48,257 nucleotides of DNA from Fimbriiglobus sp. (GTDB taxonomy: Bacteria > Planctomycetota > Planctomycetia > Gemmatales > Gemmataceae), in NCBI GenBank assembly GCA_031414395.1, contig JANNVG010000850.1:1-48257 (forward strand). The letters are read 5' to 3'. This document shows positions 5,315-34,358 of the stretch, in pieces. Under the pieces are notes generated by a model. It did not search any database. It saw nothing but the letters and a program-made list of their open reading frames with translations, and was not told the origin of the DNA. The first letter of the stretch is position 1. Every line of letters starts with the position of its first letter. The position numbers were made by a program, and so were the translations under genes.

Positions 5315-6007
5315 ATGATTAAGCCGATGGGCGCCACGATGCAAGACTGGGGCACGATGGTGAGGATGGACGAGGATGAAGTGATCGGTTTGACCAGCCA
5401 CCGGGCGTGCGCCCTGGCCGGAATCAGCATGCACCAGCTCGCTAGCTGGGAACGCATCGGCCTCGTTCATCCTGGGGTCAGCGTCAAGCTCAACGGTCGC
5501 CGGGTCCGCGTCTACGGCCTCGAGCAGCTCGTCGAGCTGCGAGTCGTGAAGGAACTCGCAGACCGGTCGATCGAGATCATTGCAATCCGAGCGATCGCAG
5601 AAGCCCATCGGTCCGCAGTGGAACACCCGCTCCGAGAGTTGCGGTGGGGCGTCGTACCCAAGGACAAGGGCCGCCCCGATGTGTACGTTGGCTACCCCGA
5701 CGGCGGTTGGGTAGGAGGTCGTGTCCCGATGCAGGGCGTAATGATCGAGGTGCTCAACCTTGAGGAGATCCGGACCGCGCTCCGTCAAGAGATCCGACAG
5801 CGACCCGTAGACCTGGTCGGGCGTACCGAACGCCGCAGAGCGACCATGGGCAACAAGTTGTTGTTCGCCGGCACGCGTACGCCAGTGGAGGCGGTGCAGT
5901 CGTACCTGCGACGGGGTTTGCCTGAGAGCGAAATCCTCGAGGCGTTTCCGCATCTGTCCCAGGACGACATCGACGTTGCCCGATCGATGCTCGTTAGCGT
6001 CGGCTGA
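5315..6007 (+). CDS. MerR-type HTH + DUF433-like protein (candidate antitoxin/regulator)
   Basis: The N-terminus (LTSHRACALAGISMHQLASWERIGLV...RVYGLEQLVEL) looks like a MerR HTH. The C-terminus (FAGTRTPVEAVQSYLRRGLPESEILEAFPHLSQDDIDVA) matches the DUF433 pattern. The true start may lie at a downstream Met. Confidence 0.65.
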   Translation: MIKPMGATMQDWGTMVRMDEDEVIGLTSHRACALAGISMHQLASWERIGLVHPGVSVKLNGRRVRVYGLEQLVELRVVKELADRSIEIIAIRAIAEAHRSAVEHPLRELRWGVVPKDKGRPDVYVGYPDGGWVGGRVPMQGVMIEVLNLEEIRTALRQEIRQRPVDLVGRTERRRATMGNKLLFAGTRTPVEAVQSYLRRGLPESEILEAFPHLSQDDIDVARSMLVSVG

Positions 6008-6034
6008 GCCAAGCCACAAACGAGGCGGAGCGGC

Positions 6035-6388
6035 GTGCGGTTCTACCTCGACAACGACGTCGACCACCGATGCCGTAAAATCCTGATGGAGCGCGGTCAG
6101 GAGTGTTGGGCAACCAGCGAAGCTGGCCGCTCTGATGCGTCCGACGACGATCAGGCCGTCTATGCCGACGACAAACACGCTGTCGTGGTCACGCATGACC
6201 GCGAGTTCACCGAACGCATGAAGAAGAACACGACCGGTCGACATGTTCGCCTTTGCGGTGAGCAACCCGATGGGCCTCGTCTCCTCGAGCGTTGGATCGC
6301 CTTGGTTCTGCCGGCGCTCGAGGCGATGCCCTATGTCGTGATCGAGTTGCGCCAAGAGGGCTACCAGGTCTTCTCGGCTTGGAAATGA
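6035..6388 (+). CDS. DUF5615 (Mut7-C/PIN-like) protein, candidate toxin
   Basis: MRFYLDNDV...DDDQAVYADDKHAVVVTHDREF matches the DUF5615 layout. It sits 28 nt downstream of the DUF433 gene. Confidence 0.65.
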   Translation: MRFYLDNDVDHRCRKILMERGQECWATSEAGRSDASDDDQAVYADDKHAVVVTHDREFTERMKKNTTGRHVRLCGEQPDGPRLLERWIALVLPALEAMPYVVIELRQEGYQVFSAWK

Positions 6389-6437
6389 CCGGCCGGTAAT
6401 CGGGGCTTTCCCGGACGTCAGATGGCCGGGCCGAGCC

Positions 6438-6581
6438 TCATTCGAGCGGTTCCCGGTCGGGGTCTTGCCAGAGGGCGACGAGGGTCTCGGCTTCGTCCCG
6501 ATCGAACTGGCCGGACGCGACCAACTCCTCGACGAGTTCGGCGGCCGGTCTCGTGAGGTCAAGATCGGCGGAAATGATCAT
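6438..6581 (-). CDS. Small acidic protein (47 aa), ParD/RHH-like signature
   Basis: Hand-translated and not in the track (<60 aa): MIISADLDLTRPAAELVEELVASGQFDRDEAETLVALWQDPDREPLE. High GC3. The ATG is 3 nt after the upstream stop. Confidence 0.45.
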   Translation of the reverse strand: MIISADLDLTRPAAELVEELVASGQFDRDEAETLVALWQDPDREPLE

Positions 6582-6584
6582 CGA

Positions 6585-6827
6585 TCAGTTGTCGAGTAGG
6601 CCGGCGGCGGCCAGGCGCTCATTCAGCATCCGATCGAAGTCGTCCATCTGCTCGGGTGTTGCTTCAACGTCGAGGACCTCGACGTTGTAGTCGGAATGGT
6701 CCGGATGCTCTTCCGGGGCGAAACGGACGGCGTTGTGCCGTCGTGACCATTCACGGTGCACTTGAGAAGTGATCCGACAAATGAAGCGGTCTCGTTCCTC
6801 ATTTTCTGCCAACGTTCGGTTGCTCAT
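6585..6827 (-). CDS. Small acidic protein (80 aa), candidate immunity partner of the MuF C-domain
   Basis: Track ORF 6585..7175 trimmed to ATG 6827 (MSNRTLAENEERDRF...), which forms an ATGA overlap with the MuF gene stop. Confidence 0.55.
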   Translation of the reverse strand: MSNRTLAENEERDRFICRITSQVHREWSRRHNAVRFAPEEHPDHSDYNVEVLDVEATPEQMDDFDRMLNERLAAAGLLDN

Positions 6828-8548
6828 AGTATCAGTCGGCCATGCCAAGACGTTCCCAGCATCATCCGCTTCCCACGGTGAATGATACTCGAATCTTCGG
6901 TCCGACCGAGGTTCGCGATGTCGGCCGGGCGCGGCGAGTCCTTTGTCGCCCACCGGGCAGGATCGAGCAGATCTTTCAATAGACCCTCCAATTCGGTGCG
7001 CTCCGCCCCCGGATCCATACCAGCGATCTCTCGACGAAGCGCGGCCGGGACAGTGCCGACATCGGGGCGTCCGGACGTGTAGTCCCAATTGAACCCTTTC
7101 CGGGCCCACGTGTAGCCGCCCACGTCGATGTTGGCGTGAACGTCGATGTGGTGCACGTCGTTCGCCCGGTACCATTCCTCCAGCCGGCCCAGGTACTCCG
7201 TGGCAAACCCGTCGCCCTGGTGGGCTTTGTCGATCGACAGGTAGGCGTTATACACCGACAGTTCGCCGTCCGGGGACCGGCGAATCTCCCGTTGGACTTG
7301 CCCCACGACCGAATTGCCGTTCATGATCCGACCGGAGACCCCGATCGTGTTGCCCTGGTGACGGGCCGATTCCAACTGGACATGAAGGTCGTCGACTGTC
7401 TGTTCGAACACCGGTCGGAGAGCGTCGGTGAGATCGGCACCGCGTTCGTTGTTGTTGAACAGGTCTGTGATCCTCGGTAGCTCTCCTGGTGTGAGCTGCG
7501 TCGGCGCAGAGATCGGCGGTGGTGGCGAGAGAGGCGGAGCGGTGGGCGGCGGCGACTGGGAGCGACTTGCTCGCGGTGAGCGCGGCTGTCGTGTCGGTTG
7601 AGCGCGTGCGCCGGTGGGTGCTGGACGTGGTGTTCGTACCTGGCGTGGCGGGCGTTGCCGGGGTCGACCGGACCGTGCTATCCGTTCGGCCCGGTCCTTC
7701 TCGGCCTGAGCCTGATCGGCCCGTTGCGCCTCGGTCGTCGACGGCTCAGCATTAGCGGCCTGGGTCTTGGTCGTGACGTCCGGACGGCCAATAAACGAAC
7801 GGCGACACCTCGGATGGCTGAGCGAATGCTGATTCGCGTCGTCGACGCTCCGAACCGTCCCGTTCGCCTTGTCCCCGTCGTCGTGGCTGGACCATCCGCA
7901 GTCCGCCCCGTCCAAAACCTCGACGAAACTGACACCGGCGCCGTGCAACTGGTTGAGGGTCCCCGCATTGAAACACTGCGCCGTTTTGGTGCGCAACAAC
8001 ATGTCTGCGTAATCGGCCAACGTCCGATAGGACCCGTCAGCGTAGCGAATCACTCCGATCGGGCCGCCCAACAGATCCACCGCCTCCCCCGCCCCGGCCC
8101 GGGTGAACTCGCGGGCTGCTTGCTGGGCGGTACGCCCCTCGATCAGGGACAGGGCCGTCTGACGGCGCGCCGCCGCCCGCACCCAACTCTTCGCATCGGC
8201 ACGAACATTCGCTGTCGCGACCAACACATCATCGAACGTGTCCGCCGCCAGTCGTTGCACAGCGTCAACATGGATCTGCGACCAGGTGAACACGTTCACG
8301 CCCGCTTGGCCGGCCCCCAACTCGTAGATGGGTGGCAGGTTCCCTTGCAGCCATCCCGCAGTGTCCGCCTCGAGGGCGGCGAGTTCGGCGTCAACGGAGC
8401 GGCGCAGCTCGATGAGCCGGCGGCGACGGGATGTGGTCGCGGGGTCGGTGGCGGCGGCGAGGGTGCGTTGTTCGATCTCGGCTTGGGCGGAGCGGAACAG
8501 GGCGACGATCCGGTCGGCGGCGGCCTGGACCTCGGCGGGTTGCGGCAT
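6824..8548 (-). CDS. MuF-like minor capsid protein fused to a Pro/Arg-rich linker and a C-terminal GNAT-like domain
   Basis: aa 1-255 carry MuF/SPP1 gp7 hallmarks (ADYADMLLRTKTAQ...SHPRCRRSF). aa ~262-350 are a P/R/Q-rich linker. aa ~351-574 contain Q-G-D-G-F-A (Q/RxxGxG/A) followed by HHIDVHAN...GGYTWARKGF. Confidence 0.7.
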   Translation of the reverse strand: MPQPAEVQAAADRIVALFRSAQAEIEQRTLAAATDPATTSRRRRLIELRRSVDAELAALEADTAGWLQGNLPPIYELGAGQAGVNVFTWSQIHVDAVQRLAADTFDDVLVATANVRADAKSWVRAAARRQTALSLIEGRTAQQAAREFTRAGAGEAVDLLGGPIGVIRYADGSYRTLADYADMLLRTKTAQCFNAGTLNQLHGAGVSFVEVLDGADCGWSSHDDGDKANGTVRSVDDANQHSLSHPRCRRSFIGRPDVTTKTQAANAEPSTTEAQRADQAQAEKDRAERIARSGRPRQRPPRQVRTPRPAPTGARAQPTRQPRSPRASRSQSPPPTAPPLSPPPPISAPTQLTPGELPRITDLFNNNERGADLTDALRPVFEQTVDDLHVQLESARHQGNTIGVSGRIMNGNSVVGQVQREIRRSPDGELSVYNAYLSIDKAHQGDGFATEYLGRLEEWYRANDVHHIDVHANIDVGGYTWARKGFNWDYTSGRPDVGTVPAALRREIAGMDPGAERTELEGLLKDLLDPARWATKDSPRPADIANLGRTEDSSIIHRGKRMMLGTSWHGRLIL

Positions 8549-8554
8549 GGCCGG

Positions 8555-8878
8555 TCAGCGGAGTCGGGGGGTGCGGACCAGCGTCGCGACGGACACCGTG
8601 TTCTCGCCGACGACCCGTTCAAGCTGAGCGATGTTGTCGGCGAGGCGTTTCAGGTTCTCGACCCTGGATTCGGAGTAGTCACCGGAGATGTTGAGCACCG
8701 CGGGGGCGGTGAGCATGTCGGCGCGTTGCTGGCGAAGAATCTCCAGGGCGGCGGCGTGGGCGGTACCAAGCCGGCCGATACGCGAGTCAAGGTCGTCGTT
8801 GTCGTACGGGTCGTAGTCGTCGCCTACCGCGCTACCGACCCATGAGCGGATGATGGCCAGGTCATCGGTGGAAGGCAT
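8555..8878 (-). CDS. Head-to-tail adaptor-like protein
   Basis: Track ORF of 107 aa with an acidic N-half (DDYDPYDNDDLD), typical of gp6-like connectors. Called by position. Confidence 0.5.
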   Translation of the reverse strand: MPSTDDLAIIRSWVGSAVGDDYDPYDNDDLDSRIGRLGTAHAAALEILRQQRADMLTAPAVLNISGDYSESRVENLKRLADNIAQLERVVGENTVSVATLVRTPRLR

Positions 8879-8911
8879 GGGCTGGTCCTTGGGGTGACTG
8901 GTTGGGGGGGG

Positions 8912-9385
8912 TTAGAGGGTGTCGAGTAGTGCGGTGAGTTTGTCGACGAGGGTGGAACGTGCGTTGTCGCCTCGGGCGGTTTCGGTTTCGTGGGCGGCGT
9001 ACGCCCGGACCGACCAGTATTCGGCGGGTTCGCTGTCGGGTTCGGGGTTGCCGTGGACCCAGGCGAGGATGTCGGCGATGGAGCCGTGGGGCACGTCGGG
9101 ACTCGCGGCGGTGTCGACGGGCGGCCGGTCGTTCTCGGGGGCAACTTCCGCCAGCTCGGTGGCGACGGCGGCTGTCAGCTCGGGTTCGCCGTGCCATGAC
9201 CCCGTCACCTTGATCGGGCCCGGCCGCGGCGGTTCCTGACGTTCCCGAACGGCCGCCGGAACGGCGACGAACCCGACGAACAACGACCGGTCGACCCGGT
9301 CGGCGACCTCATCCGGTACGGGCCCGTAGTCCGGGCCGAACCACACCCCGCCCACCGCAACATTCCGGGTGATCTCTCGCATCAT
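8912..9385 (-). CDS. Hypothetical protein downstream of the major capsid gene
   Basis: Track ORF 8912..10048 trimmed to ATG 9385 (MMREITRNVAVGG...) with a GAGGGG RBS. The longer N-terminus is an out-of-frame read-through of the capsid gene. Confidence 0.6.
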   Translation of the reverse strand: MMREITRNVAVGGVWFGPDYGPVPDEVADRVDRSLFVGFVAVPAAVRERQEPPRPGPIKVTGSWHGEPELTAAVATELAEVAPENDRPPVDTAASPDVPHGSIADILAWVHGNPEPDSEPAEYWSVRAYAAHETETARGDNARSTLVDKLTALLDTL

Positions 9386-9422
9386 GTTCCCCTCGTTGGG
9401 CGTGGACGTGACGGAAACCGAA

Positions 9423-9446
9423 CGGGGCCGGAACCCGAAGGCCCCG
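9423..9446 (-). terminator. Stem-loop after the major capsid gene (possible attenuator/terminator)
   Basis: CGGGGCC-N10-GGCCCCG, followed on the minus strand by UUCGGUUUCC. It lies 26 nt after the capsid stop. Confidence 0.35.
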
Positions 9447-9471
9447 ACCCCGATAGGCGCATCGCCAGGAA

Positions 9472-10494
9472 TCAGAGGACGACGTCGGCGACAAGAAGCC
9501 GGTTCGGGTTCACAATGATCGGCATCGCGACCGCGCCAACCTTCGTCCACCGCGACACCGGATCGTCGGTCTTCATCACCACGGCCACCAAACCGGGGGC
9601 CGCTTCGAGGCTGAGCTTCTGCGCCTCGACGAGCTCGAGCGCTTCGGCGGTCATGCCCCACGCGGTGTAACCAAGATCCGCCGGGTTTTCCGGGAGGAAA
9701 CAGATCTTGTCGACGGGGATCGCCCGGGTGGTGACCCCGTCTACGTCGAACCGGCCGTTGTACACCTCGATCGGGGGGAGCCCGTTGACCTCGAGCAGCG
9801 AGTTGAGCTGGGTCTGGTTGATCTGCGACGGGATGATCCCGTTGGCGTTCGCCAACGCCCGCAGACCGGCGTTCTGCAGCATGTGACGCAGCACGGTCTT
9901 CGAGACCACGATCCGGCCGCAGGGGCCGCCGTCGTCCTCGTACACGTCGAGCCACGTTTGTAGGTCGCCGACGACGTCGGCGGAGGCGTGCGTCGCCCAC
10001 GACACCGCTGTCGACACGATGTGGGTGCCGGGCACCGCGAAATCGCACTCGATCGTAAGGCCGTTCTCGGCGGTGAGCGTGAACTTGCCGTCAGTGAGCA
10101 CGTCACCTCGGGCGAGCTCCACCCGGATCTGAACGGCGCGGGCGTTGAGGTCCACGTCGTCGTAGATCGCCCGGGTCAACGCGTCGGTCGACGCACCCTG
10201 CAAACGCTGCAGCTGCAGGCGTTCGAATTCGCCGATCATCGTTTTCTGGCCGAGGGGCGGCAAACCGACCCGGTCCCGGGAGAACGAGTCGCGTTTCCCG
10301 ACCGGGGTTTCGGCGTCCCACGCCCGGAACTTCGCCGCCCGGTTCGTGCGCGATACCCGATCGATGATCGCTTCGATGTCGTCGATCTCGCGGTCCGGGA
10401 GATACCGGTTGAGGCCGATCTCGGCGGGCACGGGGAGTTCCCGGACGTAGCCGGTGAGTTCGGCCGGGTCGACCAGGTCGTACAGGATCGTCAT
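9472..10494 (-). CDS. Major capsid protein (lambda gpE-like family)
   Basis: 340-aa track ORF. Its layout resembles the phage major capsid protein E family, and it is preceded by a gpD-like decoration gene and a scaffold gene. Confidence 0.8.
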   Translation of the reverse strand: MTILYDLVDPAELTGYVRELPVPAEIGLNRYLPDREIDDIEAIIDRVSRTNRAAKFRAWDAETPVGKRDSFSRDRVGLPPLGQKTMIGEFERLQLQRLQGASTDALTRAIYDDVDLNARAVQIRVELARGDVLTDGKFTLTAENGLTIECDFAVPGTHIVSTAVSWATHASADVVGDLQTWLDVYEDDGGPCGRIVVSKTVLRHMLQNAGLRALANANGIIPSQINQTQLNSLLEVNGLPPIEVYNGRFDVDGVTTRAIPVDKICFLPENPADLGYTAWGMTAEALELVEAQKLSLEAAPGLVAVVMKTDDPVSRWTKVGAVAMPIIVNPNRLLVADVVL

Positions 10495-11294: not shown

Positions 11295-11993
11295 CTACGC
11301 TGCTGTGCGGGGTTGGGGGTGGCGTTTCTGGGCGAGGGCTTTGCCTCGTTCGAGTGACGTGGTGATGGTTTGGCCGCCGGCCGGGGGTTTCTTGGCGGGG
11401 CCTCCGCCCGGCGGCGGGGGTTTCGGCGGTTCGCCGTCACTGGTGGCGGTGAACAGGGCGGGCATGTCCTCTTTGAGGGCTTCGATTTCGGCGTCGATCG
11501 TGGTGTCATCGGCGTCGAAGGGAAGGTCGAGCATTCGGGCGGCGCGGGCGGACGCCCCCGCGGCGGCGAGTTTCCGTTCGACTTTCGCGGCGAGCCGGTC
11601 GGCGGCCGCTTCCGTTCTGGCCCGATCGGCGTCAGCCTGCGCGGTTTTCGCGGCTTCGAGGGCCCGGTCGGCTTCGGTTTTCTTGCCGTCCTCTTCGGCT
11701 TTACGGGCGGCGATGATCGTCTTCGCCTCTTCGACAGTCACACCGAGCTGTTCGGCGATGGCTCTCTCCGCCGCGGTTTTCGCTTCGGCGGCCCGCCGAC
11801 CGGCATGCCGGTCAAGGTCGGCCTGCGTGAATGTCTTCGGCAGGTTGCCTTCGTCGAGGTCGGGTGGGGGATCGGAGGGCTCGCTGCCACCGGACACGAC
11901 CGGCAGGTACCGGTCCCGGGCAAGGTCATGGATGAAGTCGCGACCGTTACGGGTCACGATCCGGATCTCGTCATCTCGAATGTCGGTGAGCAT
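11295..11993 (-). CDS. Scaffolding protein
   Basis: Ala/Glu/Arg-rich coiled-coil sequence between the portal and capsid genes. Trimmed to ATG 11993, which has GGAGG 8 nt upstream (the track start, GTG 12008, overlaps that RBS). Confidence 0.7.
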   Translation of the reverse strand: MLTDIRDDEIRIVTRNGRDFIHDLARDRYLPVVSGGSEPSDPPPDLDEGNLPKTFTQADLDRHAGRRAAEAKTAAERAIAEQLGVTVEEAKTIIAARKAEEDGKKTEADRALEAAKTAQADADRARTEAAADRLAAKVERKLAAAGASARAARMLDLPFDADDTTIDAEIEALKEDMPALFTATSDGEPPKPPPPGGGPAKKPPAGGQTITTSLERGKALAQKRHPQPRTAA

Positions 11994-12120
11994 CAACTGG
12001 GCCTCCACAAGGGGCTGTCTCCCCGCTTGACGGCTACGGGTCGCCGCCCCCGGCGGGCGTGCCGGGGTTGTGCGCTCACATTGCGGGGCGCACGATTCGG
12101 GGTGGGGGATGCAGTCCCTG

Positions 12121-14004
12121 TCACGGGGCGGGGGGTGGGGGAAGGTTCAGGGTCGGGGGAACCACCGGGGTGACTGTCGCGTCCGGGAGGTCCAACCCCA
12201 GTCGGGTCGCGGCGAGCTGCTCGGACCCGGTGGCTTCCGCTACCTGTAACGCGGAACTGGTGTCTTCGGTGTCGATCCTTGCGAGCTCATCAACCAGATC
12301 ACCGATGTCAACACCGGCGTCAACGAGTAGCCGCAACGCGGTGCGACGTGACACCCCGTGCGCTTGGAGTAACGCGACGGCCATCTTCGTCGCCTCTGAC
12401 AGATCGGACGGTAGGTACGACCCGAACACAACCCGCGCGGTCGGGTTCGGACCGGGGTCGAGGACCCCGCCGGCCTGACCGAACCGTTGCACCATTTTCA
12501 ACAGCAGCCGGTACTTTGGGTCGCGGGTCAACCGGAGCAGTTCGACGAGTTGACGGAACGGGCCGAACGTCAACGCGATCGCGATCCCGGACGGCGCCTC
12601 GGACACTTTCACCCGGCCGAGGACCTCGGCGGGGATCCGCGAGTTGACCGACAGCCGGTCTTGCAACGCGAGGTTCACGTGGCCGAGCTGCTCCAAGCCG
12701 GCGGAGAGGTCCAGCACGTCCATGCGGCCGTTCTCACCGAGGCCCCACACAACCCCGGGGGTGACTTCTTGGCGGGCGGGGGCGTTCCCGCCGGAGAGGG
12801 CGATGACGGGGCCGGCGGCGAGCGCGGAGGCGGCTTGGACGTCGGTGTCGGAGGCTTGGAGGTCGTCGAGGATCTGGGCGACGACGTCGAGGATGGACCG
12901 GCCGAAGTGCTCGCGGGTCGCGGGGGTGTTCGGAATGTGGACGACCGGGACGAAGTCGATGTGCATGTCGAGGTGGCGGGCGACCCGACCGTCCGTCATG
13001 CGGGCGTACACGGCGTGGTCGGGGTTGAGGTTGTCGAGGCCGGCGGCGGTCGTGAGGCCGGTGAGGGGCCAGGTGGCGTCGGTGAACAGGCAGGTCACCG
13101 TGGATGGCTGGTCGGGGGCCCACGGGTACGGGCGAACAACACCCAGTTCCGGGTCGTACCGGTCTCCGGTTTGCAACCCGCCAGACACGGCCCCGTCGGG
13201 GCCCTCAACGAAAACGGTGTCGCCCGTGTCGTCGACGGCGAACGGGATCGATCCGAGCTGGTAGGTGACGCGGCGCACGAACCGCTCCACGACACCGGAA
13301 GCGCTGGTCGTATCGAACTCCCAGGCGAGATGCACCTTCGTCGGGTAGCCGCGTTCGGTGTCGTCAAGGACCGGGAAGTAGAAGCCGGGGTCGTACACGT
13401 CGACCGTGGGGCGGCGGTCGGAGTCGGACCAGTCGAGGACGTAGACGCCGTCGCCGAGCCCGGCGATGTCGTTTTCGGCTTCAACGATTTTGCCGGTGAG
13501 GAACTCGGTTTCGGCCCACGCTCGCAGCCATTCCTGGCGGACCTGGAGGGACGGTTGGGTGTTCCACGCCTGCTCCCATTCGTCGACGGTCCGGGCGGCC
13601 TGGTCGGCCCATCGGGCGGTACGGGCGGTGTGGATCCGTCGGGCGATCGGGTCGGCGGTTTCGGGGAGCGGGCCGGGTTCGGGTGGAAGTTCGGGGGTGT
13701 CGGGGAGGTCGTCGTCGGCCCCGTCAACAACGATTTGGACGGTGTCGCCGAGTACCCCGGCGGTCGCCCGGGCGACGAGAAGTTCGGCGTCGCCGTACTC
13801 GCGTCGTTCGGTGGCGTCGGTTTGGTCGGGGAGGAGGTGCCGGGACACGTTGGCCCGGTACGCGGCGAGGACTTTGTAGGCGTCGAGGCGGCGGCGTTGC
13901 GCGGGAGGAACCCAGGTGGGGGCGAGGGATGAGTCGCGGGGCCGCAGCGGGAGTTTGTGGGTGAGGGGGGCGTATTGGTCGAGAGTCAAGTCCTGGGTGG
14001 CCAC
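12121..14004 (-). CDS. Portal protein
   Basis: 627-aa track ORF immediately downstream of TerL. Confidence 0.8.
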   Translation of the reverse strand: MATQDLTLDQYAPLTHKLPLRPRDSSLAPTWVPPAQRRRLDAYKVLAAYRANVSRHLLPDQTDATERREYGDAELLVARATAGVLGDTVQIVVDGADDDLPDTPELPPEPGPLPETADPIARRIHTARTARWADQAARTVDEWEQAWNTQPSLQVRQEWLRAWAETEFLTGKIVEAENDIAGLGDGVYVLDWSDSDRRPTVDVYDPGFYFPVLDDTERGYPTKVHLAWEFDTTSASGVVERFVRRVTYQLGSIPFAVDDTGDTVFVEGPDGAVSGGLQTGDRYDPELGVVRPYPWAPDQPSTVTCLFTDATWPLTGLTTAAGLDNLNPDHAVYARMTDGRVARHLDMHIDFVPVVHIPNTPATREHFGRSILDVVAQILDDLQASDTDVQAASALAAGPVIALSGGNAPARQEVTPGVVWGLGENGRMDVLDLSAGLEQLGHVNLALQDRLSVNSRIPAEVLGRVKVSEAPSGIAIALTFGPFRQLVELLRLTRDPKYRLLLKMVQRFGQAGGVLDPGPNPTARVVFGSYLPSDLSEATKMAVALLQAHGVSRRTALRLLVDAGVDIGDLVDELARIDTEDTSSALQVAEATGSEQLAATRLGLDLPDATVTPVVPPTLNLPPPPAP

Positions 14005-14050: not shown

Positions 14051-15535
14051 CTACCGGCGGCCTTTTAGCCGGCGGTCCTGGTACCGCTCCGCCGCGGCAA
14101 CCGTCGACCCTCCAGCAACCAGCGCCTCGAACGCGGTCGCCGCGGCGTCGACCTGGTCGTCGTGGCGGGCCTTCGGGAACCCGGCGTGCTCGACAACGAA
14201 CCGGCCGTTCCACTCCCCCTCCACGAGCACCACCTGGGCGCCTTGCTGCTGCGCGGCGTACCCGGTCGCGCGCAACTCCTTCGACCCGGACACCGGGATG
14301 GTGTGCACGTCGAACCCGGCGAGCATGCGCACGAACCCGGCGGCCTGCGCCTTGCCGGCCTGAGCCGGGTCCTGAGGCAGCTCGATGCGGGTCCCGTCAG
14401 GATCAGTTTCCGCGCACGTTCTCACCTGGTTTTGCACATCGAGGTCCGACCACTGGCCCCGCACCACGTCGGCGATGAACGTCCGGCCGTCGTGGTGCCG
14501 GCCCATCAGCACCCCGACCGTCCAGTCGCCGCCGTTTTCCGTCGCGGCAAGGTCCCAGCCTCGCACCCACCGGCACGAGTCCCGCAGATCGATCGTGAAG
14601 TGTGGGACGAACCGCCATTTGTCCTCTGGGAACTTGCCGCCCTTGGGGGTTTGCGGGGTTTGCTGGGCTTGGGCCAACCAGACCGATTCGCCCAACGTGA
14701 GGGACATGCCTTCGCGCATCCGTTCGAGTTCTTCGATCGGGTAACGCTCCGGCCACAGCGCTTCGCCGGGTGTCCGGCCGAGCGGGTCGTTGTCGGTGTC
14801 GGCGATCGCGGGGAGGCGCACCTCGCGCCACTCGTCGGGCTGTTTGGTGAGAAGGAACCCGGACAGGTCGTCTTCGTGCCAGCGCGCGCAGATCACGATG
14901 ACGGCGCCGCCGGGTTCGATGCGGGACACCATCGTGCCGGTCCACCATTCCTGGACTCGTTGCCGTTCGAGCGGCGACATGGCCTGCGCGAAGTTGCGGA
15001 ACGGGTCGTCGACAACGATGAGGTCGCCGCCTCTACCGATGGGTGAGCCGCCGACACCGATGGCGATCATGCCGCCGGTGTTGTGGGGTTTGGCGAGGTC
15101 CCAGCGGTTCGCCGCGTTTGATGCGCGTGACACGGTGACCCCGAACACGTCGGGGCCGTACTCGGTGAGGATGTCGCGGGCGGCCCGTCCGTGGGCGGCG
15201 GCGAGGTCGGCTTCGCCGGTGGCGAGGATGACGCGGCGGTGGTAGCGGGCGATGAACCAGGCGACAAGCCATCGGGCGATGAACTCGGACTTGCCGTGTC
15301 TCACGGAAACGCTGATGATGAGCCGGCCGGCGGTGTTGATGGTGTGGAGGACTTCCCGTTCGATGAGTTCGAGGTGGGGGGCGGTTCGCCATTGGTTGCG
15401 GGACCGGGCGACGGCGAACGCGATGGGTGACGCTTGTTCTTCGCCGGTGGGTTCGGGTGGTGGTGGCGGGTCGACGAGGTCGGCGGCGATAGCCCACGGG
15501 TCGACGATGGTGGTCATGTCGGCCGGTGGGCCCAC
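14051..15535 (-). CDS. Terminase large subunit
   Basis: 494-aa track ORF with an ATPase region (...RVILATGEADLAA...), a Walker B-like LIVVDDP and a C-terminal nuclease-like half. Confidence 0.85.
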   Translation of the reverse strand: MGPPADMTTIVDPWAIAADLVDPPPPPEPTGEEQASPIAFAVARSRNQWRTAPHLELIEREVLHTINTAGRLIISVSVRHGKSEFIARWLVAWFIARYHRRVILATGEADLAAAHGRAARDILTEYGPDVFGVTVSRASNAANRWDLAKPHNTGGMIAIGVGGSPIGRGGDLIVVDDPFRNFAQAMSPLERQRVQEWWTGTMVSRIEPGGAVIVICARWHEDDLSGFLLTKQPDEWREVRLPAIADTDNDPLGRTPGEALWPERYPIEELERMREGMSLTLGESVWLAQAQQTPQTPKGGKFPEDKWRFVPHFTIDLRDSCRWVRGWDLAATENGGDWTVGVLMGRHHDGRTFIADVVRGQWSDLDVQNQVRTCAETDPDGTRIELPQDPAQAGKAQAAGFVRMLAGFDVHTIPVSGSKELRATGYAAQQQGAQVVLVEGEWNGRFVVEHAGFPKARHDDQVDAAATAFEALVAGGSTVAAAERYQDRRLKGRR

Positions 15536-20301: not shown

Positions 20302-20615
20302 GCCGGTTCGCTTCTTTCAGTTGGTCGGTCGGCCCGGCGGGATATGCCGAGCCGGGTGTAGCGGCGGCGACGGATGGAGGTCCGACCGGGCTCGGTGGTC
20401 CCGCCCCAGGTGCCGGCCTCGTGGTTATCGAGGGCGTGGTTGAGGCATTCGCTACGGACCGGGCATGCGGCGCACAGTGCGGCGGCCGTCGGGTCGATCT
20501 CGTTCGGTTCGCGGGGGAAGAAGATCTTGGTGCGGTACCCGTGACAGGCCGCCTGGTCCCACCAGTCGACGTCGACTGCGCTCATGGTGTCGTGGGCGTG
20601 TTGCCGGGACATCAC
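20298..20615 (-). CDS. whiB: WhiB-family transcription factor
   Basis: Track ORF with C-X21-CAACPVRSEC and GTWGG. Confidence 0.8.
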   Translation of the reverse strand: MMSRQHAHDTMSAVDVDWWDQAACHGYRTKIFFPREPNEIDPTAAALCAACPVRSECLNHALDNHEAGTWGGTTEPGRTSIRRRRYTRLGISRRADRPTERSEPA

Positions 20616-22021
20616 GCCGTCTCCATCGCTTCACGAACCCGGCCAACAATCCATTCCATGACCGGTGGGGTCACCGCGTTGCCAGCGAGCTTGATCTGAT
20701 CCTTTTTTGTGAGGGTGCGGGGGATGTAGCCGGGTGGGAATGCCATGGCGGCGGCGCACTCGTACGGTTCGAGCATGCGAAACCCGCAGTCGGCGACGGC
20801 TTGGGCGGTGTCGATGTAGGCGAACCGGTCGCGGGTCGGGATGGTCGGTACGGGCCGGTCGGTGGGCTGTGGGATCGACGTCCCGTAGTACGGCACAAGT
20901 AGGGACTGGTGACCGGAAGCGGTGAGGGTTCGTGCGGGTTCGGTGGCCGGAGTGACCATCTCGGGTCCGCCGCTGTTGTTCCGCATGAGGAGCCCGTGGT
21001 GGGTTCCGCCCGCGGTCAGCGTGTGGGCGGGCTTGGAGGTCGGGTAGGCGTGACCGTTGCGGCGGAGGGGCACCATCATCGCTGGCGGTGTCGCGAGGGC
21101 GTGGGTCGATGTGGTTTGCTGAACGGCGACGGGTGCGGTCAGTGGGCGGGCCCGGTTGCCGGGCGTCGTTTCGTAGGTGTTCCCCGCCCCGGCGGTGATG
21201 ATGGGGAGCCAGCCGTACCGCTCTAGCCCGGCGAGGATTCGGGCGTTCGTCGCGGGGGCGAGGGGTTTGGTTCGGTCACCGATCCGGGGGCAGGGCAGCG
21301 ACCAGTCAAGAATGTCGTTCGCGGGGCGGGTGGCGGGTTCGCCGCGGGTGCCGCACTGGGCGCATGACCACAGCCACTGTTGATCGTACCGGCCGACTGT
21401 TCGGCCGTTCTTCCATGTTTGGCGCATGATGCTGTCACGGTCACATCGTGGGCATCGGGCGGTGCGTTCCATGTCGAGGTTGATGGTGAGGCCGTTGCGC
21501 CAGAACACGATGTAGATCCGGTCACGGGATTGGGGCACGCCGTGGTGCATTGAGTTCGTCGAGATCACCCGATGCTGATAACCAAGGTCGGCCATCGCTA
21601 CATGCCAGCCGCGCCACCCCACCCACTTCGTGGCCTCGACCACGTTCTCGACAACGATCACGTCGTAGCGGAGTTGTTCGGCGAACCGGACCACATCCCA
21701 CATCGTCGCCCTCGACCGTTCCGCGGCGGGGTCGGGTGCGTCCCACAGTGATGGGTCTTGCTGTTTCCGGGACACCCCGCGGGCCTGCGAGTGGTTTGTG
21801 CATTCGGGGGATGCGAGAAGGATGTTTGTGCGCGGGTAGCGGCGAGGGTCGGCTTGGGAGATGTCGGCGCAGTCATGGCCGGCGGCGGGGAAGTGTGCCT
21901 GGTGGACGTCGACGGCGGTCTGCCAATGGTTCGCGGCCATTACCAGTTCGACGCCCGCGGTTTTCGCGCCGAGCGATGATCCGCCGGCCCCGCAGAATAG
22001 GTCGGTTGCGGTGAGGCTCAC
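20612..22021 (-). CDS. DNA (cytosine-5)-methyltransferase, orphan
   Basis: Motif I DLFCGAGG, catalytic SPEC(T), and ENV (VVENV). No cognate endonuclease gene nearby. Confidence 0.85.
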   Translation of the reverse strand: MSLTATDLFCGAGGSSLGAKTAGVELVMAANHWQTAVDVHQAHFPAAGHDCADISQADPRRYPRTNILLASPECTNHSQARGVSRKQQDPSLWDAPDPAAERSRATMWDVVRFAEQLRYDVIVVENVVEATKWVGWRGWHVAMADLGYQHRVISTNSMHHGVPQSRDRIYIVFWRNGLTINLDMERTARCPRCDRDSIMRQTWKNGRTVGRYDQQWLWSCAQCGTRGEPATRPANDILDWSLPCPRIGDRTKPLAPATNARILAGLERYGWLPIITAGAGNTYETTPGNRARPLTAPVAVQQTTSTHALATPPAMMVPLRRNGHAYPTSKPAHTLTAGGTHHGLLMRNNSGGPEMVTPATEPARTLTASGHQSLLVPYYGTSIPQPTDRPVPTIPTRDRFAYIDTAQAVADCGFRMLEPYECAAAMAFPPGYIPRTLTKKDQIKLAGNAVTPPVMEWIVGRVREAMETA

Positions 22022-26704: not shown

Positions 26705-27204
26705 CAGAGGTACCGCCATTCGATCCGAGTGACCATCTGGTCAGGTCGACCACCGAACGTCTCGCACCACCACGACACCCACGCGTGAACGGTCGGCCCG
26801 CAGATCCCCGTTTCATCCGGCCACCACGCCTCGGCGAACGGGCCTCCCGGCGTGTAGGTCAGCCCTTCACGCACTATGTCCTCGGCGGTGATGTCCCACA
26901 GTCGTTCGCGTCGCACTGATACCACATCAACATCGCAGAGGCGGACGCTCGGGGCGCGTCGCACACCCGTTCCGTTACATGGATCGCAGTCGTAGTCGGA
27001 GTCGTAGCGGTGCCCTTCGCCGTCACACTCTGGGCAGTTCACGAGGGGCAGACCCATGACCTGTTCACACAGGGTCAACCGGTCGCCGTCGGCCAATATG
27101 CGCCGCCCGTTCTTGTCCTCCCACCATCCGAGCCGGCGGGTAACCGTCTTCGTGCGGTCGCGGACCTGGTCGGTCGTATGTGACACGCTCATCAGTCGGC
27201 TCAT
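26704..27204 (-). CDS. ASCH-domain protein with inserted DnaJ-type CxxCxGxG zinc finger
   Basis: Track ORF 26704..27420 trimmed to ATG 27204. It has ...DRTKTVTRRLGWW..., then CPECDGEGH and CDPCNGTG. Confidence 0.5.
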   Translation of the reverse strand: MSRLMSVSHTTDQVRDRTKTVTRRLGWWEDKNGRRILADGDRLTLCEQVMGLPLVNCPECDGEGHRYDSDYDCDPCNGTGVRRAPSVRLCDVDVVSVRRERLWDITAEDIVREGLTYTPGGPFAEAWWPDETGICGPTVHAWVSWWCETFGGRPDQMVTRIEWRYL

Positions 27205-28727
27205 GTCGTCGCCGTTTCGGCGGTGCCAACAGTTTCGGTCAAATGGTCGATGATCAGCCCGCACAGATCGGCGTCGATATCGGAGCGGGATGTCAAACCG
27301 GGGGTACCCAAATCGGCGCACAATTGGAGTAGCGCGCACCGTTCGTTCTCCTCCGACGCGGACCGCAGATCGGCGGGGGGCATCGGCGGGAACTCCGGCG
27401 GCTGGTACGCCTTCGCCCACAAGGCGAACATCATCCCTTTGGCTTTCGCTGTCGGTTTCGGTTTCCCCGACGCGGTGCGCCGACCACCGGGTGGGCCAGA
27501 CCGGGGGGGGGCGGGGGGAGCCGTGTCCCCTTCCCGGTCCGACATGGTGGTGGTAGGGGTACGGCGAGGCGGATTCGCCGCACCCCCACCCTCAGGAGCC
27601 GTCAACGGGGTCGTACCCCCGTCGGGCGTCACTGAGACTGTGCCGTCAACGTCCGGGGATGACACGTCTTCGGCTTCGGCGGGGTCTATGTTCCCGCCGG
27701 TCGCCTCGATGCCATCCCCGTCAGTTGACGCGTGCCCCGGATCGCCAACGAAGCGCTCCGACACACTCCCCGCCGGATGCGGGGAGTTCTCAAAACGGGT
27801 TCGGGTCTCAGAGAACGTCTCGACCCGACCCTGATCTTCGTCTCGCTCATCATCCGCGGGCAGGTTCGCGATCACGGCATCCAACTCCAGACGGGCCACT
27901 TCGGTCACATCACCGAACGCCTGGCCCCACAGCACCTTCGCCGCCGGCCGCACCCCACCAACCGCCGCTAACAACTCCCGCTTAGCCTCAGCGACCGGGA
28001 CCGTCTGAACACGCGGAGCGGCAGGTACACCCGACTGCAACCAGTCACGGAACGTCTGCGCAGCGTCAGCCGCGCGACCCGGCTGGACCATCACATCCGC
28101 CAACGCGGAGCACCGCGACTTCGTGAACAGCAGCCGGTGTTCCAGGTCGATGTCGCCGCACATCGTGAACTCGTACTCGACGCCCTGACGCATCACCGGG
28201 GCCATCCCAACCTTCTTAGGGACCTTCTTCCCGCGACTGTCCTCTTCAAGGACGTATTCCATTTTGGATCGCATCGTCCCGATGACGTGCATGTCGCAGC
28301 CGAGCATCACGTCGATGAGGTGCCGAAGTTGAGGGGTCGCTACTTTCCAACCGGCAAAGCTGTTCCCCCCGGATCGCTGCCCGGCAGCGTCGGCGATATC
28401 AAGGGTGCCGCCTTCGCCTTCCCAAAAGTGGGACATGGAGTCAAGGACGCAGACGGCGTAGCCGGCCTTCTCGGCGGCGGTGATGGTGTCGGCGAGGCGA
28501 CCGGGGTCGTACGGCGGCGCCCAGGTGAGGACGTCGAAATCGAACATGTCTGCGTAGAGGGACGCTGAGCCGTGTTCGGTGTCGACGACGGCGATAGGCG
28601 CTCCGTCGGCGAGGATGGTGGCCCATTCGAGTGCCGTGTAGGTCTTGCCGGAGCCGGTCGGTCCGGCGAACGCTATGCGGGCTTTCAGTTGGTGTTTGGC
28701 GGCGCGGGTGAACGGGTTGGCGGTCAT
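27201..28727 (-). CDS. Sak4-like/RecA-fold ATPase (AAA_24-like) with a long C-terminal extension
   Basis: Walker A GPTGSGKT, Walker B-like VCVLDS, and a typical ...GMAPVMRQGVEYEF... segment. About 250 extra residues include a Pro/Gly/Thr-rich tract. Confidence 0.7.
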   Translation of the reverse strand: MTANPFTRAAKHQLKARIAFAGPTGSGKTYTALEWATILADGAPIAVVDTEHGSASLYADMFDFDVLTWAPPYDPGRLADTITAAEKAGYAVCVLDSMSHFWEGEGGTLDIADAAGQRSGGNSFAGWKVATPQLRHLIDVMLGCDMHVIGTMRSKMEYVLEEDSRGKKVPKKVGMAPVMRQGVEYEFTMCGDIDLEHRLLFTKSRCSALADVMVQPGRAADAAQTFRDWLQSGVPAAPRVQTVPVAEAKRELLAAVGGVRPAAKVLWGQAFGDVTEVARLELDAVIANLPADDERDEDQGRVETFSETRTRFENSPHPAGSVSERFVGDPGHASTDGDGIEATGGNIDPAEAEDVSSPDVDGTVSVTPDGGTTPLTAPEGGGAANPPRRTPTTTMSDREGDTAPPAPPRSGPPGGRRTASGKPKPTAKAKGMMFALWAKAYQPPEFPPMPPADLRSASEENERCALLQLCADLGTPGLTSRSDIDADLCGLIIDHLTETVGTAETATT

Positions 28728-33074: not shown

Positions 33075-33173
33075 CTATAAAACACCAGGTCACAGGCCAT
33101 TTCCTGCCCACTTACCGACCACCCGAAAAAGGTTACCAACCCGCTTTCCATCCCTTTGAGCCATACTGGACCA

Positions 33174-34358
33174 ATGGCAGGCAACGTGAGGTACCGCTCA
33201 GGGGCGTGGCGCATCCAGGTCTACGCCGGCACCGACCCGATCACCGGCCGCAAAAAACGCGTCGCCCGCACCGTCCACGCACCCAACAACCGCGCCGGAC
33301 GCAAACTCGCCGACGAAGCACTCGCCACCCTCCTCCTTGAAGTAGCAGCTCGAGGAACGGCGATCGCGGACGACATAACCGTCGCCGAACTCCTACAACG
33401 ATGGATCGCATCACGCACCGCCGACTGGGCCCCCTCCACCGTCCGCGGCCACCGCCAAATCGTCGACACATGGATCACACCCCGCATCGGCCACCGGCGA
33501 CTCCGCAAACTCCGCGCGGTCGACATCGACGCCATGTACGCCGACCTCCGAGCCCACGGCGGCCGCAACCGCACCCCGCTCTCCGCCGGGACCGTCCGAC
33601 GCATACACACCGTCCTGCACTCCGCGTGCAACCAAGCGGTCCGCTGGGGCCTCATCACCACCAACCCCGCCACCATCGCCAACAAACCGACCGTCGAACC
33701 CCACAACATCAGCCCTCCCAACCCCACCGACGTCGCGAGGGCCATCACCGAAGCCGACCCCGACTTCGCCCTCTGGGTCCGGGTCTCAGCGACGACCGGC
33801 GCCCGCCGCGGCCAGATCGCCGCTTTGCGTTGGGACGATCTCGATCTCGACGCCGGCACCATCACGTTCGCCCGGGCGATCTCGATTGGTACCGGGGAGC
33901 TCGTCGAGAAAGGGACCAAGACCGGTCGGATCTACACGGTGTCCGTCGACCCGGGCACCATCGCTCTCCTCGCGACGCGCCGGGCCGACTGGTACCGCCA
34001 GGTCCTCGCCGAACCATCACTCCCCAAAAACGGGTTCGTGTTCGCTAGACCCGACGGCCGGTGCTGGCACCCCACCTCCGCCTCCCACGCCTGGCGCACC
34101 CTCCGAGACACCGTCGGCCTCCCGAACGTCCGCCTCCACGACCTCCGCCACCATGTTGCGACCGAAATGCTCGCCGCCGGCGCCGACGTTCGCACCGTCG
34201 CCCACCACCTCGGCCACGCCAACCCGTCGACCACCCTCAACGTGTACGCGGCGTTCGTGCCCGCACTCGACCGGGCCGCGTCCGACGGTCTCGGGGCCCG
34301 GCTCGATCAGGCGATGCCAACGGTCAGCGAGCCGACGGAACTCGCACAGGAGCAGTAA
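33174..34358 (+). CDS. int: Tyrosine integrase
   Basis: Track ORF 33156..34358 (TTG), here started at ATG 33174. The C-terminal catalytic region reads RLHDLRHHVATEMLAAGADVRTVAHHLGHANPSTTLNVYA. Confidence 0.9.
   Translation: MAGNVRYRSGAWRIQVYAGTDPITGRKKRVARTVHAPNNRAGRKLADEALATLLLEVAARGTAIADDITVAELLQRWIASRTADWAPSTVRGHRQIVDTWITPRIGHRRLRKLRAVDIDAMYADLRAHGGRNRTPLSAGTVRRIHTVLHSACNQAVRWGLITTNPATIANKPTVEPHNISPPNPTDVARAITEADPDFALWVRVSATTGARRGQIAALRWDDLDLDAGTITFARAISIGTGELVEKGTKTGRIYTVSVDPGTIALLATRRADWYRQVLAEPSLPKNGFVFARPDGRCWHPTSASHAWRTLRDTVGLPNVRLHDLRHHVATEMLAAGADVRTVAHHLGHANPSTTLNVYAAFVPALDRAASDGLGARLDQAMPTVSEPTELAQEQ

Follow-up and report, generated by a model that had tools for sequence, protein, structure and literature searches.

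A MuF minor head protein with a putative GNAT acyltransferase domain and a co-varying small partner in a temperate actinobacterial phage or prophage

The MuF-linker-GNAT gene

Here, we describe a pair of overlapping genes on contig JANNVG010000850.1, a stretch of 48,257 nt that was analyzed as a whole (the window) and that, judged from its sequence, is a temperate actinobacterial phage or prophage. The first gene encodes a protein of 574 amino acids (aa) in which a MuF-type minor head domain is joined through a linker to a GNAT-like C-terminal domain (C-domain), and the second encodes an acidic 80-aa protein (the partner) whose start overlaps the stop of the first gene (Table 1). The original prediction had read the larger open reading frame (ORF) as a MuF-like minor capsid protein carrying a GNAT-like cargo. 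We found the ORF with exactly the predicted boundaries, and the motifs quoted from it (ADYADMLLRTKTAQ, SHPRCRRSF, QGDGFA and HANIDVGGYTWARKGFNW) were all present. Two full-length homologues, P0003 (56% identity) and P0004 (49% identity), both align at 100% coverage; therefore, the ORF is a genuine gene. Cargo fused to MuF domains is thought to be injected with the phage DNA, and very few such cargoes have been characterized, the Apk2 (p)ppApp synthetases being one example (PMC12226406).

Table 1. Coordinates of the MuF-GNAT gene, its parts, the partner ORF and other phage genes in the window
Feature	Position	Strand	Basis or remark
MuF-linker-GNAT fusion gene, 574 aa	6824..8548	(-)	full-length homologues P0003, P0004
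MuF / SPP1 gp7-type minor head domain, aa 1-265	7754..8548	(-)	PHROG matches; 60-69% identical in many relatives
Linker, aa 266-350: helical TTEAQRADQAQAEKDRAERIAR, then Pro/Arg-rich low-complexity segment	7499..7753	(-)	translation
Predicted GNAT-fold acyltransferase domain, aa 351-574 (conserved core aa ~395-574)	6827..7498	(-)	AlphaFold2, Foldseek, Pfam, profile against PDB
GNAT motif A Q444-G-D-G-F-A449 (acetyl-CoA pyrophosphate-binding loop)	7202..7219	(-)	translation and family alignment
GNAT motif B region A472-N-I-D-V-G-G-Y479-T-W-A-R-K-G-F486	7091..7135	(-)	conserved Tyr at usual general-acid position
80-aa acidic helix-loop-helix partner ORF (candidate inhibitor, accessory subunit or docking module)	6585..6827	(-)	co-variation with GNAT
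ATGA stop/start overlap of GNAT gene and partner ORF (translational coupling)	6824..6827	(-)	junction ...CTGATACTATGAGCAAC...
107-aa conserved head-block gene, directly upstream of MuF gene	8555-8878	(-)	no Pfam match
E-type major capsid protein	9472-10494	(-)	
Decoration protein, 240 aa	10560-11282	(-)	
Scaffold	11295-12008	(-)	
Portal	12121-14004	(-)	
Large terminase	14051-15535	(-)	
C-5 cytosine DNA methyltransferase	20612-22021	(-)	
AAA_24 protein	27201-28727	(-)	
Tyrosine integrase	33156-34358	(+)	

The N-terminal domain (N-domain) matched phrog_37388 over aa 28-264 (E=1.8e-37) and phrog_4611, a 'minor head protein' (E=9.5e-19). Sub-threshold matches to Pfam Phage_min_cap2 (E=0.04) and to TIGR01641 phageSPP1_gp7 (aa 179-253, E=0.004) coincide with the stretch ADYADMLLRTKTAQ ... 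SHPRCRRSF, and nine homologues of the query at E<=1e-44 carry PF06152. The predicted MuF module was thereby borne out, and by these profile matches the N-domain is a member of the MuF / SPP1 gp7 minor head protein superfamily. The Pro/Arg/Gln-rich linker was also present as described. Its first ~25 residues are conserved across the tails of the relatives compared, whatever their cargo, and the linker is likely the boundary where C-terminal modules are exchanged.

The C-domain was modeled with AlphaFold2 from a 30-sequence family alignment, with a mean predicted local distance difference test score (pLDDT) of 93.2 and a predicted template modeling score (pTM) of 0.87. A Foldseek search of this model against PDB gave 126 matches at E<=1e-3, and the best 50 of the 126 are all GNATs. 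The top neighbors listed are Naa30/NatC (7l1k_A, 2.3e-5), Naa50, PA2271, AAC(3)-Ia and NatD, with Naa60 and Gcn5/PCAF lower. In a search of PDB sequences with the family profile, the significant matches were GNATs only, the best being Naa30 (5e-4) over beta4-alpha3-beta5. The GNAT fold is a mixed beta-sheet in which alpha3 and alpha4 flank a beta4/beta5 splay, and the model and its matches assign the C-domain to it. Beyond the GNAT core, the model shows a beta-hairpin at the N-terminus and a helical insertion of ~80 residues that precedes the last strand, beta7, and follows beta6. The predicted GNAT-like character of the C-domain was thus supported by the model and its structural matches, and not by Pfam alone; on the strength of the model, we consider the C-domain a divergent GNAT.

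The catalytic motifs of the family are retained. In the family alignment, G445 of motif A is invariant and G447 nearly so, and the QGDGFA stretch aligns with RGQGIA of Naa30 in the profile search. In motif B, conservation is complete or reaches 90% or more at A122, D125, G127, G128, Y129, W131, A132 and G135 (numbered within the domain). By analogy with the GNAT topology, Y479 would occupy the usual position of the general-acid tyrosine. Judged from these residues, the domain is probably an active acyltransferase. Naa30/NatC, Naa50, Naa60 and Naa40 are among the best matches over beta4-alpha3-beta5-alpha4, at 15-21% identity over ~87 residues; the phage domain differs from these N-terminal acetyltransferases in its additional beta-hairpin and insertion, and we do not imply an ancestry shared with the eukaryotic and archaeal enzymes beyond the GNAT superfamily.

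The original prediction had pointed to GNAT toxins such as TacT and AtaT. A toxin of this type would acetylate aminoacyl-tRNA and arrest translation, with the small downstream ORF as its antitoxin or immunity protein. TacT1 (7ak8, E=2.2e-4, rank 15), GmvT (9ilr, rank 29) and TacT2 are among the best 50 of the 126 Foldseek matches, and a small co-varying partner gene is present. However, TacT1 and GmvT score no better than other GNATs, protein N-terminal and lysine acetyltransferases rank ahead of the TacT-type toxins with similar scores, and the family profile matched no TacT, AtaT, KacT or GmvT chain in PDB. Moreover, the C-domain is acidic (isoelectric point (pI) 5.6; family median 5.1), whereas tRNA-binding GNAT toxins show basic surfaces. 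Known GNAT antitoxins are upstream ribbon-helix-helix (RHH) proteins; in the window, the partner lies downstream, both the partner and the upstream 107-aa ORF lack a Pfam match, and no RHH or DUF1778 domain was detected in them. The likeness to TacT and AtaT is thus no better than that to protein N-terminal acetyltransferases, and we consider a tRNA-acetylating toxin very unlikely. What the gene pair shares with TacT-TacA, AtaT-AtaR, KacT-KacA and GmvT-GmvA is the GNAT fold, the adjoining small partner gene and a place for such toxins among its structural neighbors; it differs from them in showing no specific affinity, in its acidic enzyme, in its downstream helix-loop-helix partner and in its fusion to a capsid protein.

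Exchange and spread of the GNAT cargo

The full-length query recovered 45 related proteins, of which 20 have N-domains 60-69% identical to that of the query. The GNAT C-domain was counted in three of the 45, the sharers named being P0003 and P0004 only. About half (24) end ~50 residues past the MuF domain, without a C-domain. A zincin-like module with an HExxH motif is present in about 12 and is annotated in one case as PF18796. One further relative carries an ADPrib_exo_Tox / ADP-ribosyltransferase (ART) cargo (PF03496) and another a Gln_amidase cargo (PF15644). The original prediction had suggested looking for such swapping, and it was found. It had also named two outcomes that would count against it, a lack of GNAT matches and a domain conserved in all related MuF proteins; GNAT matches were obtained, and the domain is not common to all related MuFs. 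Judged from its sequence, the protein is a MuF carrier with a swappable C-terminal cargo, built in the manner of the MuF polymorphic toxins and of polyvalent effectors.

The position of the gene was correctly predicted as well. It lies after the major capsid gene, within the head block, whereas the usual position of MuF genes is after the portal. The same gene order was found in all six related loci, including those with short MuF genes. We rejected a recent insertion as the origin of the post-capsid position, the short MuF genes of relatives being at the same place. Since close relatives with this gene order lack or replace the domain, the GNAT is not needed for assembly in this lineage.

These comparisons bear on a morphogenetic or in-cis role, in which the GNAT would act inside the head or in the cell that makes the phage, for example by acetylating N-termini or lysines of structural or DNA-bound phage proteins, with the partner as an auxiliary subunit and without injection. 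The nearest solved structures include the catalytic subunits of N-terminal acetyltransferases (Naa30, Naa50, Naa60 and Naa40), and some such catalytic subunits work with auxiliary subunits. In-frame fusions of the GNAT to its partner, described below, would be expected of an enzyme and its subunit, and the MuF-GNAT gene is situated inside the head gene block. However, relatives with 60-69% identical MuF domains, in the order conserved across six loci, are without the domain or have a peptidase, an ART or a deamidase in its place, and members of the GNAT family are also found next to ART, Zeta toxin and 2H domains in giant multi-effector proteins. We regard a morphogenetic role as unlikely, since phages of close kinship manage without the domain.

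A word-indexed homologue search with the C-domain alone returned one protein, and the size of the family was taken from an exhaustive HMMER search. With aa 351-574 as the query, this search gave 1,759 cluster representatives (50% identity) at E<=1e-3 and 528 at E<=1e-10, and 287 loci were confirmed in IMG/VR when it was scanned with the alignment of the domain. In the best 80 of the 287, the protein is 450-830 aa long and nearly always ends in the domain. Among 54 viral proteins ending in the domain, Pfam recognized MuF in 25 and VG15 in three, and ART or Zeta toxin in a few; it recognized the GNAT (E<=1e-3) in just three. In BFVD, the full domain (TMq 0.58-0.75) matched uncharacterized phage proteins of 437-864 aa, including those of Bacillus phages JL and CP-51. 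The hosts and relatives met include Streptomyces, Salinispora and Amycolatopsis. The original prediction had considered a GNAT cargo unfamiliar for a MuF protein, and with 1,759 clusters and 287 viral loci this cannot be upheld; GNATs also appear already in the passages of PMC5512222 on phage and plasmid effectors. The class of MuF-fused effectors is known, and the GNAT cargo family is widespread and nearly invisible to Pfam, NCBIfam and PHROG annotation.

One member of the family, gp5 of Microbacterium phage Jera (L001 4120-6123), has this GNAT domain as its C-terminal ~200 residues (30% identity, E=2e-14). It is annotated as a 'capsid maturation protease', which is probably incomplete, and is followed by four small reverse-strand genes and not by the partner ORF. 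The domain would provide a concrete label for common 'hypothetical' or misnamed genes of this kind. HMMER also found the domain 4-12 times per protein in giants of up to 7,703 aa; multi-copy proteins include P0047 (7,601 aa), P0054 (7,703 aa), P0048 and P0049-P0051. Those of 1,446-2,200 aa (P0049-P0051, P0053 and P0055) also carry ART, Gln-deamidase, alpha/beta-hydrolase and metallopeptidase domains by Pfam.

The downstream partner and the function of the gene pair

The partner has a pI of 4.8 and is ~48% identical to the ORFs downstream of two other GNAT-bearing relatives. In four control loci with a zincin-type or short MuF, its place is taken by unrelated small ORFs in three and by no ORF in one, and the gene after this spot (~115 aa) is conserved in all compared loci. 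We ran a hidden Markov model (HMM) of the partner on six-frame translations of all fetched loci. In 47 of 70 unique viral loci, the model matched at a distance of no more than 90 nt from where the GNAT gene ends (45 of these downstream on the same strand). It had no further match in those viral loci, and none in Jera or the four MuF loci without a GNAT. The partner is a stand-alone protein of 62-134 aa in 41 of the 47 loci. The predicted involvement of the small ORF was thus confirmed in that it co-varies with the GNAT cargo. A second small ORF (6438-6581, minus strand, 47 aa) had likewise been proposed as an immunity candidate; the three other GNAT-bearing loci compared contain nothing that corresponds to it, it gave no family match, and we rejected it as part of the module.

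A search with the partner gave 32 clusters, all 'hypothetical' and without a Pfam domain, and the named ones come from Actinobacteria. The partner had no relative in Pfam, PHROGs, NCBIfam or PADLOC and no significant match in PDB by profile. A search of viral contigs with a three-sequence partner alignment found nothing, its patterns being too narrow. Of three genomic look-ups, two placed the partner directly downstream of 633- and 636-aa MuF-GNAT genes that adjoin a terminase and a probable portal gene; these loci are apparent prophages, one in Sphaerisporangium siamense and one in Salinispora arenicola. The remaining look-up gave an orphan 93-aa partner in the chromosome of a Streptomyces sp. 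(GCA_040629295.1; L089 5001-5282), with no GNAT within 5 kb. This copy lies ~4 kb from a cas3 gene; it might be an orphan immunity gene, or the association may be due to chance. Immunity genes of polymorphic toxins typically have such orphan copies. Co-inherited with the GNAT and with no description found, the partner family is new here.

A natural in-frame fusion of GNAT and partner, P0144 (residues 272-564), was modeled with AlphaFold2 as one compact unit (pLDDT 88.8, pTM 0.87), in which a linker modeled with low confidence leads into the partner, a helix-loop-helix. In a Foldseek search with this model, only the GNAT core was matched and nothing was found for the partner. Three residues on one face of alpha3 after the coenzyme A loop, N103, L106 and W109, are conserved specifically in GNATs that have a partner (40 versus 12 sequences, with kinship ignored). 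From the fusion model and this conservation, we infer that the partner binds the GNAT directly, probably with the involvement of alpha3.

On balance, we think it somewhat probable that the gene pair encodes a packaged, phage-delivered MuF-GNAT effector with its partner. In characterized phages, N-domains of the MuF/SPP1 gp7 type place proteins beside the portal in the procapsid; by homology, the MuF N-domain would do so here, and the Pro/Arg-rich linker would tether the cargo to this carrier. The cargo, one of several alternative modules and to judge by its motifs an apparently intact acyl-CoA N-acyltransferase of a divergent GNAT type, may be packaged into heads and set free in the next host along with the DNA. 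It could then acetylate a host macromolecule, aiding takeover or blunting defense. Because of the structural neighbors and the acidic pI, the substrate is more likely to be a protein amine than tRNA. A precedent for the disabling of host defense is AcrVA5, a phage GNAT that lysine-acetylates Cas12a, although AcrVA5 is a small stand-alone early protein and not a virion-packaged MuF fusion. In the least certain step, the partner would keep the GNAT in check in the producing cell, in an immunity-like manner, or otherwise regulate it. If the GNAT is delivered and acetylates a host protein, protein acetylation would join the small set of virion-borne host-modifying activities, in phages of Actinobacteria.

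Notwithstanding, several observations weigh against this interpretation, some concerning the enzyme and others the partner. With regard to the enzyme, the isolated C-domain, with 20.0 bits (E=8.9e-4), falls just below the Pfam gathering threshold of 20.7 bits for Acetyltransf_1, the whole protein scoring 17.9 bits, and only a core of ~90-100 residues superposes on solved GNATs, with a query-normalized TM-score of ~0.33. Both facts would also suit a pseudoenzyme, that is, a GNAT fold that the head protein keeps only for binding or for its structure, without catalysis, and the presence of up to 9-12 copies in single giant proteins is unusual for an enzyme. However, the family is most strongly conserved at residues that in GNATs determine cofactor binding and catalysis, namely the glycines of motif A, Ala/Asn of beta5 and Tyr-x-W-A of motif B. 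All of these are retained in the window, and we regard the loss of catalysis as highly improbable. The multi-copy homologues themselves pass the Pfam GNAT thresholds.

With regard to the partner, it is fused in-frame to the GNAT in five of 195 homologues (arrangements G-s and G-s-G-s). In P0144, the layout is 2H phosphoesterase - GNAT - partner - ... - Zeta toxin, and P0160 and P0084 have the partner domain first and the GNAT last. In four viral loci (L040:4701-6755, L042:2003-5812, L051:4642-8628 and L068:4519-6180), where the preceding gene ends in a GNAT, the partner domain forms the N-terminus of the next protein, which carries a 2H, an ART, a Zeta-toxin or a further GNAT domain. This arrangement suggests that contact between GNAT and partner may link successive effector polypeptides. 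About one-third of the GNAT loci, including that of Jera gp5, have no partner, and the multi-copy giants (P0047, P0054 and others) are not among the five proteins with a fused partner; therefore, the GNAT is not obligatorily dangerous to its producer. The fusions fit an accessory or docking role better than classical immunity. The toxin-immunity reading of the original prediction was thus upheld in the co-variation of the small ORF and weakened by the fusions to GNATs and other effectors and by the loci that lack a partner. For the stand-alone 80-aa protein, we tentatively place the role of inhibitor slightly ahead, at somewhat less than even confidence; for an immunity-like inhibitor speak its coupled downstream position, its co-variation with the cargo, its small size and acidity, and the one orphan copy, all in line with the descriptions of MuF toxins in PMC5576092.

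A docking function would mean that the GNAT and the 80-aa domain form a pair that tethers extra effectors to the MuF carrier for co-packaging, of which the pair in the window would be a cargo-less remnant or a cap. The four loci in which the partner begins the next effector, the layout of P0160 and P0084 and the compact unit predicted for P0144 are in line with this. However, the partner stands alone, with nothing attached, in the window as in 41 of 47 viral loci, and we consider a docking module quite unlikely in the window. A broader possibility, of which we are doubtful, is that the GNAT and the 80-aa protein constitute an undescribed two-part delivered-effector module, in which an injected acetyltransferase disables a defense or takeover target and the partner either gates the enzyme or tethers 2H, ART or Zeta effectors. 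Such a module would represent a new enzyme-partner family, widespread in actinobacterial phages.

A delivered MuF-GNAT effector, the interpretation that we favor, has points of contact with the MuF polymorphic toxins that temperate phages encode (Jamet et al. 2017, PMC5576092). In both, the MuF N-domain is shared with 'short' relatives, the C-terminal extension is swapped, a small ORF (<150 aa) directly downstream goes with the extension, and the carrier is a temperate phage, as indicated in our case by the integrase and by relatives in Sphaerisporangium and Salinispora prophages. The window differs in its GNAT cargo, its actinobacterial high-G+C host and the place of the gene after the major capsid gene rather than beside the portal; the toxins of PMC5576092 are associated with Firmicutes, and neither GNATs nor acetyltransferases occur in the main text of that paper. 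The occasional fusion of the partner to the enzyme is also atypical of an immunity protein.

In the passages on GNATs and MuF of Iyer, Burroughs, Anand, de Souza and Aravind (2017, PMC5512222), MuF is described as a virion-targeting hub in polyvalent effector proteins, and GNATs of two families are listed as protein-modifying cargo of phage and plasmid polyvalent proteins. Effector roles for MuF fusions and polyvalent proteins, GNATs included, have been proposed before, in those passages and in PMC5576092. Besides the paper of Iyer et al., the literature search for MuF proteins with GNATs returned only one other paper, from the Aravind group. The likeness, as far as these passages go, lies in a MuF hub with enzymatic effectors and in the presence of the GNAT family in giants with ART, Zeta toxin, 2H, peptidase and Gln-deamidase domains. 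Unlike polyvalent proteins, the protein in the window has a single cargo domain and is not polyvalent, and the same passages make no mention of the small partner. Mycobacterium phage Alice gp113, the exemplar of the second GNAT family of Iyer et al., had an hhalign probability of 1.4% with this GNAT and no significant alignment by BLASTP, and kinship at the family level was thus not detected. For the first family (exemplar BAR32501.1), ART is a frequent neighbor; ART neighbors occur in the present family, which may or may not coincide with it, and a tblastn search of 50,697 phage records gave no uvMED match.

The surrounding phage genome

The 48,257-nt contig seems to comprise all or nearly all of the genome of a temperate phage, the temperate lifestyle being indicated by the tyrosine integrase. 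No match to positions 6000-9500 was found by megablast among 50,697 phage genomes, and none of the cultured phages is closely related to this lineage; for the MuF domain, the only one matched is Streptomyces phage ZL12, with 26% identity. The gene order was read as large terminase, portal, scaffold, decoration protein, major capsid protein, two small genes and MuF gene. A stretch at 8912-9471 separates the major capsid gene from the 107-aa gene upstream of the MuF gene. The original prediction had noted a lower G+C in the 3' half of the MuF-GNAT gene. A dip is present (0.618 in the GNAT segment, 0.653 in the window), but it is only mild, at the 14th percentile of same-sized windows; the partner ORF reaches 0.576 (4th percentile). 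The G+C at third codon positions is 0.74 in the GNAT segment, 0.67 in the partner ORF and 0.80-0.88 in the structural genes.

A two-gene cassette on the opposite strand (5315-6388, plus strand) sits within the head-tail block. Its products are a 230-aa protein with MerR_1 and DUF433 and a DUF5615/PIN-like protein of 117 aa, and the cassette looks like a toxin-antitoxin-type moron. PADLOC returned nothing for this pair, for the MuF-GNAT gene or for the partner. The rejected 47-aa ORF lies between the partner gene and this cassette and may be a part of the cassette or no gene. In the GNAT-bearing relative L002, which lacks the MerR cassette, the partner ORF is directly followed by the conserved ~115-aa gene.

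Inteins were met in this phage lineage. An intein (PF14890) is inserted in the MuF domain of the relative P0045 (917 aa), and the terminase of L002 (1-774) has LAGLIDADG/Hom_end matches. In the window, aa 2-228 of the decoration protein align with positions 7-124 of a 155-position PHROG profile, and the protein seems to contain a Thr/Ala/Gly-rich insertion of ~100 residues, which also gives weak matches to tail-protein families.

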